In this document: in pieces, positions 15,001 to 16,613 of the stretch | Numbering within the stretch: the first letter of the stretch is position 1 | Layout: each line of letters starts with the position of its first letter | Position numbers: made by a program | Origin: a virus | Lineage: Duplodnaviria; Heunggongvirae; Uroviricota; Caudoviricetes | Length of the DNA: 44,997 bases | Strand: one strand, 5' to 3' | Virus record (IMG/VR): IMGVR_UViG_2917408641_000002 | Location: 1 to 44,997 of that record

Positions 15001-16613
15001 AAAGCCTGGTTGTTGTGGTGTTACAGCGGGAGTATTTGTTGGGAATATCAGATCGCGATAACACAGTGGGCGTGGAATGAATTTAATACTCAATCCGGTA
15101 CCAGAAAAATTGCAGGGAAAACGCAGGAACGCCTGAAGAAATTAATCTGGCTAGCGGCGCAGGCAGTAAAAGCAGAACTTTTTGGTGGGGAAGGTTATGA
15201 ATACCAGGATCTGGCATTACTGGCGGGAGTGACAACTAAAAACTGGTCCAAAACATTTACTCGTCACTGGGTTGCAATGAAACACATTTTTCACCGACTG
15301 GATAGTGAGGCTTTATTGTTTGTAATGAGAACACGTTCAAAACAAAAGGCGGCATTTTCAAAGCAAAGTGTTGCAAAAGTAGATTGAAAGGCATATATTT
15401 CATGCAAATCTGATATTTTGCCGATTTTGTACGTGATGGCAAAAGCAAGCACAACCCGCCGCCGAGCGGGTTTTTTATACCCGAAAAAGACACAGAACAT
15501 TAAATGTGATGGCGATTGTGCTATGAGTTTTTCCTGCTATGAAGCTTCTTGACTAAATGGAGCTTCATTTGTTATGCAATGTGTTGTTATGTTTTTTGGG
15601 TTGTTAATGGTGTTGCTATGGATGACAGTACTCTGCTCAGGCACTCTTCACTTTTTGTTGCTTATATGGGCTGTCTTGGGTGGGGGAGCGCTTACTTCTA
15701 TGGCTGGGGAACTTCCTTTTACTATGGTTTCCCATGGTGGGTTGTTGGGGCTGGTGTCGATGATGTGGCCAGGAGCCTTTTTTATGCTGTTACAGTCATT
15801 GTTATATTCCTGATTGGATGGGGAACAGGTGTTTTTTTCTTCCTGGGGATCAAACAAAAAAATAATGTGCAGGATCTGAGTTTTATCAGACTTTTTCTGG
15901 CGATATTGTTGCTTTTTGTTCCGCCTGCTCTGGAGTTTTCAGTAATTCATCGACACGTTGCGCCAGATGCACTGGTTTTATGCGTTATTGCTGCCTTAAT
16001 AATTACGTTTTTTGTCAGGTCAGGAAGAAGACTTATTTCAGTAAAATTTTTTTCGGACATGTCTTTTATTCGCCATCACTGGATTGAGTGTATGATGGCT
16101 GGGTTCATGATCTATTTCTGGGGATTTTCACTTATTGCCGGTTGGTACAAGCCCCAGTTTAAGAATGAATATCAGATGATTCGCTATGAGAGTGTCTGGT
16201 ATTACGTTCTTGCACGCTATGATGATCGGCTGATATTGTCGGAATCGTACAGTAATGGGAGTTCTACATTCGTTATACTTAATAGCGGGCAGATTGATGA
16301 CTTCAAAATTAATGTGGTCAGAGTACGTTAATATTGCCTGAGTAACTTTTTGTTGGCTGCTCATACTTTTTACCATGTATGAAGCAGATACAGGATTGAA
16401 TCAGGTGTGTGGGGGGGTATTGCAGAGCTGAACTGGCATATGTATTATTTCGCGCCCGGCCCTTTAGCTTAGTGGTGAGAGCGAGCGACTCATAATCGCC
16501 AGGTTGCTGGTTCAAATCCAGCAAGGGCCACCAACCGCCACTAGCTCATCAGGAAAGAGCGTCAACCCTTTAAGTTGAGTGTGCGAGGTTCGAGTCCCCG
16601 GTGGCGGTCCAGT

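Follow-up and report, generated by a model that had tools for sequence, protein, structure and literature searches.

A TfpB/STM1630-family membrane-protein gene with its own promoter-like element behind a tR'-like terminator in a lambdoid prophage

The stretch of DNA analysed here, referred to below as the window, comprises nucleotides (nt) 1-44,997 of the virus record IMGVR_UViG_2917408641_000002 (Caudoviricetes), and its subject is a plus-strand gene that encodes a predicted membrane protein of 237 amino acids (aa) and is accompanied by a promoter-like element of its own. A first-pass annotation, made from the sequence without database searches, had drawn in this place an open reading frame (ORF) of about 260 codons at 15549-16331. 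The ORF is indeed present on the plus strand, with 260 aa when counted from the TTG at 15549, but its start had been set 69 nt too far upstream. The conserved start is the ATG at 15618, from which all homologues align and which yields the 237-aa protein, and the same 714-nt coding sequence is annotated by RefSeq in three Escherichia coli genomes. The TTG at 15549 was rejected as a start codon, and the segment 15549-15617 is regarded as non-coding, because close relatives differ within it by 1-nt, frame-breaking insertions or deletions; this TTG is instead the beginning of a conserved TTGACT box. The gene and its immediate signals are as follows.

15549-15578, plus strand: promoter-like element of the cassette, with a -35 box TTGACT (15549-15554), an 18-nt spacer containing TG at 15570-15571, and a -10 box TATGCA (15573-15578)
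15609-15612, plus strand: Shine-Dalgarno-like GGTG, read from the sequence, 5 nt before the ATG at 15618
15618-16331 (stop codon included), plus strand: coding sequence of the predicted 237-aa inner-membrane protein of the TfpB/STM1630 family, based on PHROG 1521, homologues labelled PF27470, the ratio of nonsynonymous to synonymous substitution rates (dN/dS), and an AlphaFold2 model

A G-rich block at the position of the Shine-Dalgarno-like sequence is kept in the aligned loci. The gene is real and is under purifying selection, with pairwise dN/dS of 0.06-0.28 against four homologous genes (dS is saturated in the comparison with phage 434, a relative described below). Lack of conservation in related genomes had been named in the first-pass annotation as the mark of a spurious ORF; a protein search returned instead 113 homologue clusters at E ≤ 0.001, ranging from 93% to 36% identity and originating from Escherichia, Shigella, Salmonella, Citrobacter, Enterobacter, Klebsiella, Cronobacter, and Yersinia. 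Conservation extends over the full length of the protein; identity is 43% for the Yersinia members and 20-29% for those of Pasteurellaceae and Moraxella. The exact protein is deposited as WP_038356001.1, 'hypothetical protein [Escherichia marmotae]'.

Judged by sequence, the protein is a member of the TfpB/STM1630 family (PF27470, PHROG 1521), with which it shares both length and architecture. The match to PHROG 1521 (E = 1.1e-84) aligns residues 40-260 of the 260-aa ORF with positions 1-221 of the 222-position profile, and PHROG matches were obtained only to four families, all of unassigned function. The assignment to Pfam PF27470 'TfpB' is made through labels precomputed on all 113 homologue clusters and not through a direct score against the model; distant members recovered by a profile search are labelled PF27470 as well, and some recent copies in E. 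coli carry the RefSeq label 'STM1630 family protein'. The family is small, since the profile search recovered only 70 proteins at E ≤ 0.001 among 1.84 billion representative proteins. No match was found with 43 aligned members in a Pfam scan beyond noise (best E = 0.0011, in one member), nor in the Protein Data Bank by sequence, with either the single protein or the 43-sequence profile.

The presence of the gene varies among related phages and prophages, as a comparison across genomes demonstrated. Among 50,697 phage records only three contain it, one of 434 and two of 2B8, and a DNA search matched it in 1197 of 5426 complete E. coli genomes (~22%), in up to four places per genome, with at least 80% of the gene covered in 460 E. 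coli genomes at blastn sensitivity. In IMG/VR, 188 contigs encode a relative, and 80 of these loci were kept for the analysis of context and 79 for the promoter count.

Members of the family also occur outside prophages. A scan of species-representative genomes, made with a 13-sequence alignment, located them in Salmonella, Pasteurellaceae, the neisserial genus Conchiformibius, and Moraxella. In Pasteurellaceae and Conchiformibius (Neisseriaceae) intact copies stand alone between unrelated housekeeping genes, and each of two assemblies of A. actinomycetemcomitans contains two copies. Intact copies are present on 106 Shigella plasmid records, including pWR501 (L123, 5001-5717), where the gene lies in an insertion sequence (IS)-rich part of the virulence plasmid pINV, and on heat-labile toxin (LT) plasmids of enterotoxigenic E. 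coli (ETEC), where they lie ~860 nt upstream of eltAB on the opposite strand (L036, 5996-6709; L124, 4001-4714). The Salmonella copy adjoins a gene with Sif and GDSL-lipase domains (sseJ), and it is identified as STM1630 because of this synteny and of the RefSeq family label, not by a direct accession match. Two further neighbourhoods were observed. At L120 (2176-3815, minus strand), an AbiLi-like ATPase (PADLOC, E = 6.5e-63) with a 167-aa partner ORF is separated by 1.2 kb from the distant member P0158, both within a small island that adjoins an isocitrate dehydrogenase gene. In Glaesserella parasuis (L019, 5952-8014, minus strand), a member is followed by three ORFs which resemble by eye a cytolethal distending toxin operon; of these, the second resembles a DNase-I-like CdtB.

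The description of the product as a membrane protein with aromatic- and glycine-rich segments agrees with the predicted topology. Four strong hydrophobic segments are seen in the hydropathy profile, and the AlphaFold2 model calculated with 43 sequences, distant members included (predicted local distance difference test score, pLDDT, of 79.1; predicted template-modelling score, pTM, of 0.74), contains five helices of transmembrane (TM) length, at residues 10-36, 47-78, 89-111, 116-135, and 155-181, followed by a C-terminal five-stranded β domain of ~55 aa within residues 184-235. A model based on only 27 close homologues was poor (pLDDT of 63.7). Aromatic residues constitute 19.8% of the whole protein, and the first 80 residues comprise 25% aromatic residues and 15% glycine. 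TM1 (0.92) and loop 1 (0.85) are the best conserved parts, and the TM1-TM2 loop reads GWGSAYFYGWG.SFYYGFPWW, again rich in aromatic residues and glycine. Net loop charges averaged over the family are +2.9 for loop 2, +3.5 for loop 4, and -0.7 for loop 1, from which, applying the positive-inside rule, we infer an N-in/C-out topology, with the conserved loop and the β domain placed on the periplasmic side of the membrane in the model.

The gene is also set apart by its base composition, and the first-pass view of it as T-rich and distinct from its surroundings holds. Its guanine-cytosine (GC) content is 41.9%, whereas the window as a whole has 50.5% and its helicase, terminase, and capsid genes have 51-53%; in the local profile the GC fraction is ~0.40-0.44 over the gene region and 0.50-0.55 upstream. 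The AT skew is negative across the ORF (-0.19 to -0.36), so that the coding strand is T-rich, and T makes up 41% of the second and third codon positions, as expected of a hydrophobic protein.

The promoter-like element goes with the gene, outside prophages as well. In an alignment of ten diverse loci, the proteins of which share 58-99% identity, TCTTGAC and TTTGTTATG are invariant, and the spacer varies in sequence and not in length. The pattern TTGAC[TG]-N13-TTTGTTATG occurs exactly in 73 of the 79 viral loci and, with one position relaxed, in 78 of them, always 67-69 nt 5' of the ATG. In the ETEC plasmid locus, one of the ten, the upstream homology ends abruptly at the box, with the promoter boxes retained. 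The element is predicted to be a σ70 promoter of the extended -10 type with an imperfect hexamer. A CII-binding site, annotated in phage 434 just 5' of the gene, was considered as a further conserved signal and rejected, as the window sequence lacks the TTGY-N6-TTGY pattern. Since the gene carries this promoter-like element, Q antitermination, to which its expression had been ascribed at first, is probably not the sole route, and transcription entering by read-through of tR' would be the other.

The region that would provide such read-through lies directly upstream, and the tRNA (transfer RNA) cluster downstream, of the gene, in agreement with the originally proposed placement of the ORF between tR' and the tRNAs. 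The features on the two sides are listed below.

14428-15387, plus strand: RusA-Q fusion ORF of 319 aa (Pfam PF06323, E = 5.4e-90; PF05866 RusA, E = 6.4e-15)
15371-15399, plus strand: pR'-like late promoter TTGCAA-17 nt-TATATT, overlapping the end of Q (consensus scan, 9/12 matches)
15404-15478, plus strand: putative short late-leader RNA ending in a tR'-like intrinsic terminator (terminator scan)
16458-16767, plus strand: four tRNA genes with anticodons CAT, TTT, TGT, and TCC (ARAGORN; Rfam tRNA matches of 44-74 bits)
17038-17065, plus strand: intrinsic-terminator-like site, with the stem AACCGCC...GGCGGTT followed by T8 (terminator scan)

The layout of a lambdoid late-control region is thus present, the Q domain being followed over a distance of about 100 nt by a promoter-like site and an intrinsic terminator, and it matches the annotation of phage 434. 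Residues 95-310 of the fusion ORF constitute a complete antiterminator Q domain (positions 2-217 of the 220-position PF06323 model), whereas the RusA domain is truncated. Compared with the strain APEC O1, 86 nt are deleted here, which removes the C terminus of RusA together with the first codons of Q and creates the in-frame fusion, with the junction near 14719/14720; the deletion is flanked by imperfect 17-nt direct repeats, TTGTGCGCGGTCAGCTC and TTGTGCGTGAGCAGCTC. Loci that agree in the type of Q, phage 434 among them, also share the pR'-like block, and the position of the site at 15371-15399 suggests that it serves as pR'. The tR'-like terminator, located 54 nt past this site, has a stem of seven pairs (15453-15472), five of them G-C, followed by TTTTAT. 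The leader (15404-15476) matches the Rfam family isrK over the full length but weakly, and at 22.8 bits (E = 0.03) the match stays below the gathering score of 50. The Salmonella prophage Gifsy-1 encodes IsrK as a short RNA, and the match is consistent with a short, terminated late leader and nothing more. The ATG of the gene lies 140 nt beyond the unit composed of pR', leader, and tR'. Most of the 80 viral loci have a Q gene, belonging to one of two types, whose end precedes the ATG by 211-283 nt, and the gene is found downstream of at least two Q types.

No terminator was detected by the terminator scan between the stop codon of the gene and the tRNAs, and the predicted promoter of the cassette could therefore also drive the tRNA genes; the terminator-like site at 17038-17065 would then end a transcription unit composed of promoter, gene, and tRNAs. 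The tRNA with the CAT anticodon is labelled 'tRNA-Ile' by RefSeq in APEC O1, and the codons that the four tRNAs of the window would read end in A. The set that follows the gene differs in other prophages (for example, CAT and TCT, or CAT, TCG, and TCT) or is absent, and tRNA clusters of varying composition follow the gene in only 22 of the 70 viral loci with sufficient flanking sequence. Phage 434 and O157 prophages have DUF3927 and a SASA/NanS-like esterase after the gene. The idea that this is a slot in which related phages carry toxins or other cargo has to be divided accordingly: the slot does hold varying cargo (DUF3927, the SASA/NanS-like esterase, and the tRNA sets), but the gene itself is a conserved cassette.

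Several other features were noted further downstream. An imperfect hairpin 3' of the tRNAs (16893-16976, plus strand) has 28-nt arms that are 79% complementary and a 28-nt loop, and gives a meaningless, sub-threshold Rfam match to mir-983. An IS66-family element (approximately 17313-19928, minus strand) separates the tRNAs from the lysis genes, runs opposite to the late operon, and contains a 523-aa transposase, a 115-aa TnpB-like ORF, and a 225-aa ORF matching the transposase PHROG 2422. Past this element, the segment 20146-21847 (plus strand) comprises a TerB-like 'tellurite resistance' moron (PHROG 632), a holin (PHROG 198, 20744-21202), and a short endolysin-like ORF of 127 aa, which matches only positions 38-166 of a 292-position profile and may be truncated. 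Homology to APEC O1 is present at 14434-16768 and 22644-25319 but not in this segment.

Taken together, this is an ordinary accessory gene of an already catalogued family and not a new type of system. We consider it probable that it is a conserved gene for a prophage inner-membrane protein, carried after tR' as a moron with its own promoter and acting at the cell envelope. According to this interpretation, the moron would be a dispensable cassette of low GC content inserted just after tR'. In the lysogen, basal transcription would proceed from its own extended -10 σ70 promoter, probably together with the downstream tRNAs, and strong transcription would be added late in infection by Q-modified RNA polymerase reading through tR'. 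The protein would act cell-autonomously at the envelope, with no part in virion assembly or in the lysis machinery, because intact copies persist far from phage genes. We can speculate that it would protect the lysogen at the inner membrane or in the periplasm, by superinfection exclusion or a related block to an incoming phage or toxin. Such a protective role is a tentative guess, more apt to be wrong than right, prompted by the behaviour of inner-membrane morons of prophages, the patchy, mobile, and multi-copy distribution of the family, and its single AbiLi-like neighbour.

A number of observations weigh against this interpretation or some part of it. The initial statement that the function of the gene is unassigned still stands, since no function for any family member was found in the databases or in the literature searched (PF27470, Moraxella TfpB, flanks of LT prophages). 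The single protein has no match in NCBIfam or in the local Pfam, a copy that does not include the PF27470 model, and none of the families among the PADLOC-DB 2.0 defence models matched at E ≤ 1. The AbiLi-like neighbour, a weak hint of defence, is limited to one locus. The -10 box TATGCA lacks the usual final T and is separated from the -35 box by 18 nt, and a simple consensus promoter scan did not call the element at 15549-15578, because the last base of its -10 box is not T. Late expression in the prophage of the window is uncertain, since Q is fused to RusA and the IS66 element interrupts the late region; late transcription may be impaired here, in which case the gene's own predicted promoter would be the main route of expression. 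Finally, deletion of STM1630 in Salmonella caused neither a growth defect nor a defect of replication in macrophages (PMC6785131), and a deletion screen reported hypermotility for the STM1630 mutant (PMC4219756); the abstract of the follow-up study names other genes as confirmed, and STM1630 is not among them (PMC4534456).

The location of several copies raises the question of whether the protein is a factor of lysogenic conversion directed at the animal host and not at phages, that is, an envelope protein that aids the bacterium during host interaction or virulence. STM1630 has been listed as co-regulated with virulence genes of Salmonella pathogenicity island 2 (SPI-2) (PMC2639726), and during macrophage infection its expression is lower in strain D23580 than in 4/74 (bioRxiv 10.1101/450098). 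Copies adjoin sseJ, lie upstream of eltAB, or reside on the Shigella virulence plasmid, and the family occurs mainly in animal-associated Enterobacteriaceae, Pasteurellaceae, Moraxellaceae, and Neisseriaceae. We nevertheless regard this role as unlikely. Reduced intracellular replication was observed only for the STM2475 mutant and not for that of STM1630 (PMC6785131), the protein has no secretion signal and no similarity to effectors, and adjacency to toxin genes may represent hitch-hiking, as the late-leader slot is where phages carry toxins.

The position of the gene as the first ORF past tR' on the late transcript, the holin that follows within 0.7-3.6 kb in several prophages, and the integral-membrane character of the model would fit an accessory of the lytic cycle, made only from the Q-antiterminated late transcript and modulating the timing of lysis, the holin/antiholin pair, or the state of the membrane. 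This explanation is quite unlikely in view of the intact homologues that lack phage or lysis neighbours in Salmonella, on Shigella pINV and ETEC plasmids, in Pasteurellaceae, and in Moraxella, and of the conserved promoter-like element of the gene's own. In addition, tRNAs or other cargo lie between the gene and the holin, its scarcity among phage records indicates that it is dispensable for lambdoid lysis, and there is no match to holin or lysis families in PHROG or Pfam.

A small polytopic inner-membrane protein with a patchy, mobile, and sometimes multi-copy distribution, a promoter-like element of its own, and no partner gene could also be an orphan that confers immunity to a toxin attacking the membrane, for example a bacteriocin or a contact-dependent effector. 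With no consistently adjacent toxin gene and no similarity to immunity families in Pfam or NCBIfam, this is improbable.

An accessory role in type IV pili, comparable to that of the pilin-linked membrane proteins of the TfpY/FimB type which aid assembly, is suggested by the name-giving member of the family, which is located inside the Moraxella pilin inversion segment, directly 3' of a pilin coding segment and on the same strand. TfpY-like proteins are similar in size (235-245 aa) and likewise have a cytoplasmic N terminus, TM helices, and a periplasmic β-rich C-terminal domain (PMC11841053). Compared by description, however, they have three TM helices and a larger two-sheet domain (PMC11841053), as opposed to five helices and one small sheet in the present model. 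Pilin linkage outside Moraxella was rejected: a pilin is encoded within 5 kb only in that genus, no pilin signature was present within this distance in the loci of Enterobacteriaceae, Pasteurellaceae, or Neisseriaceae, and the lambdoid context contains no pilus genes. A pilus function is for these reasons very improbable.

That the ORF is a spurious product of AT-rich leader DNA, as its unusual composition and the missing local Pfam and NCBIfam matches might suggest, is refuted to practical certainty by dN/dS well below 1, full-length conservation, and a confident structure prediction.

The envelope-acting moron favoured here would concern many genomes, as the gene is very common in E. coli, often in several copies, and is found also in prophages of enterohaemorrhagic E. 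coli (EHEC), on Shigella virulence plasmids, on ETEC toxin plasmids, and in Salmonella. The slot that it occupies, beside the late promoter, is the one in which Shiga toxin and other toxins are carried, and the conserved promoter-like element may drive basal transcription of whatever follows, here four tRNA genes. Knowledge of its function would fill a gap in the map of accessory genes of lambdoid prophages. A bolder proposal, which we think rather unlikely, is that the whole family represents an unrecognised class of prophage-borne inner-membrane proteins for superinfection exclusion or defence, repeatedly captured by chromosomes and virulence plasmids. If this were true, such a protein would be encoded by the first late-region gene, under its own promoter, in about a fifth of E. 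coli genomes, and would have been captured repeatedly as Salmonella STM1630, on Shigella pINV, on ETEC LT plasmids, and in the Moraxella pilin locus.

Among known systems, the morons of lambdoid phages provide a parallel in organisation. Lambda bor and lom and HK97 gp15 are such morons, the last encoding an inner-membrane protein of superinfection exclusion. The likeness is confined to organisation, namely to a distinct composition, dispensability, a promoter of its own (predicted for the gene of the window), and insertion in the late region; no similarity in sequence or fold to anything characterised was found, solved and viral structures included.

The Moraxella bovis tfpB gene is homologous: tblastn aligns residues 10-233 at 28% identity (E = 1e-21 within the candidate set), and its product shares with the window protein the N-terminal motif AY.YGWGQA..HGYPWW and the C-terminal YYIL. 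It differs in encoding 261 aa (L026, 491-1276) and in its location, between two inverted C-terminal segments of pilin and not in a prophage. This location agrees with that published for tfpB, within the region of pilin inversion, and accounts for the name TfpB of the Pfam family. In M. lacunata and M. equi (L028, L029, L030) only residues 10-141 are matched, which suggests truncated or frameshifted copies.

Salmonella STM1630 shares 45% identity over the full length and is, in contrast to the gene of the window, chromosomal and outside a prophage. It stands alone with its own promoter, its transcription start having been mapped, and two single-nucleotide polymorphisms in the -10 box silence it in strain D23580 (PMC6785131).

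A further relative is CPT_434_68 of phage 434 (also present in phage 2B8), annotated as 'putative membrane protein', with 58% aa identity over the full length. The two loci differ in what follows, gene 68 being succeeded by DUF3927/TciB, a small membrane protein, and a SASA esterase, with no tRNAs there; a literature search for 'TciB' yielded only papers on phage P1 and P1-like plasmids. In both phage 434 and the window, the gene occupies the same position, after a Q82-like antiterminator and a terminator that is annotated in 434, and is preceded by the same promoter boxes.

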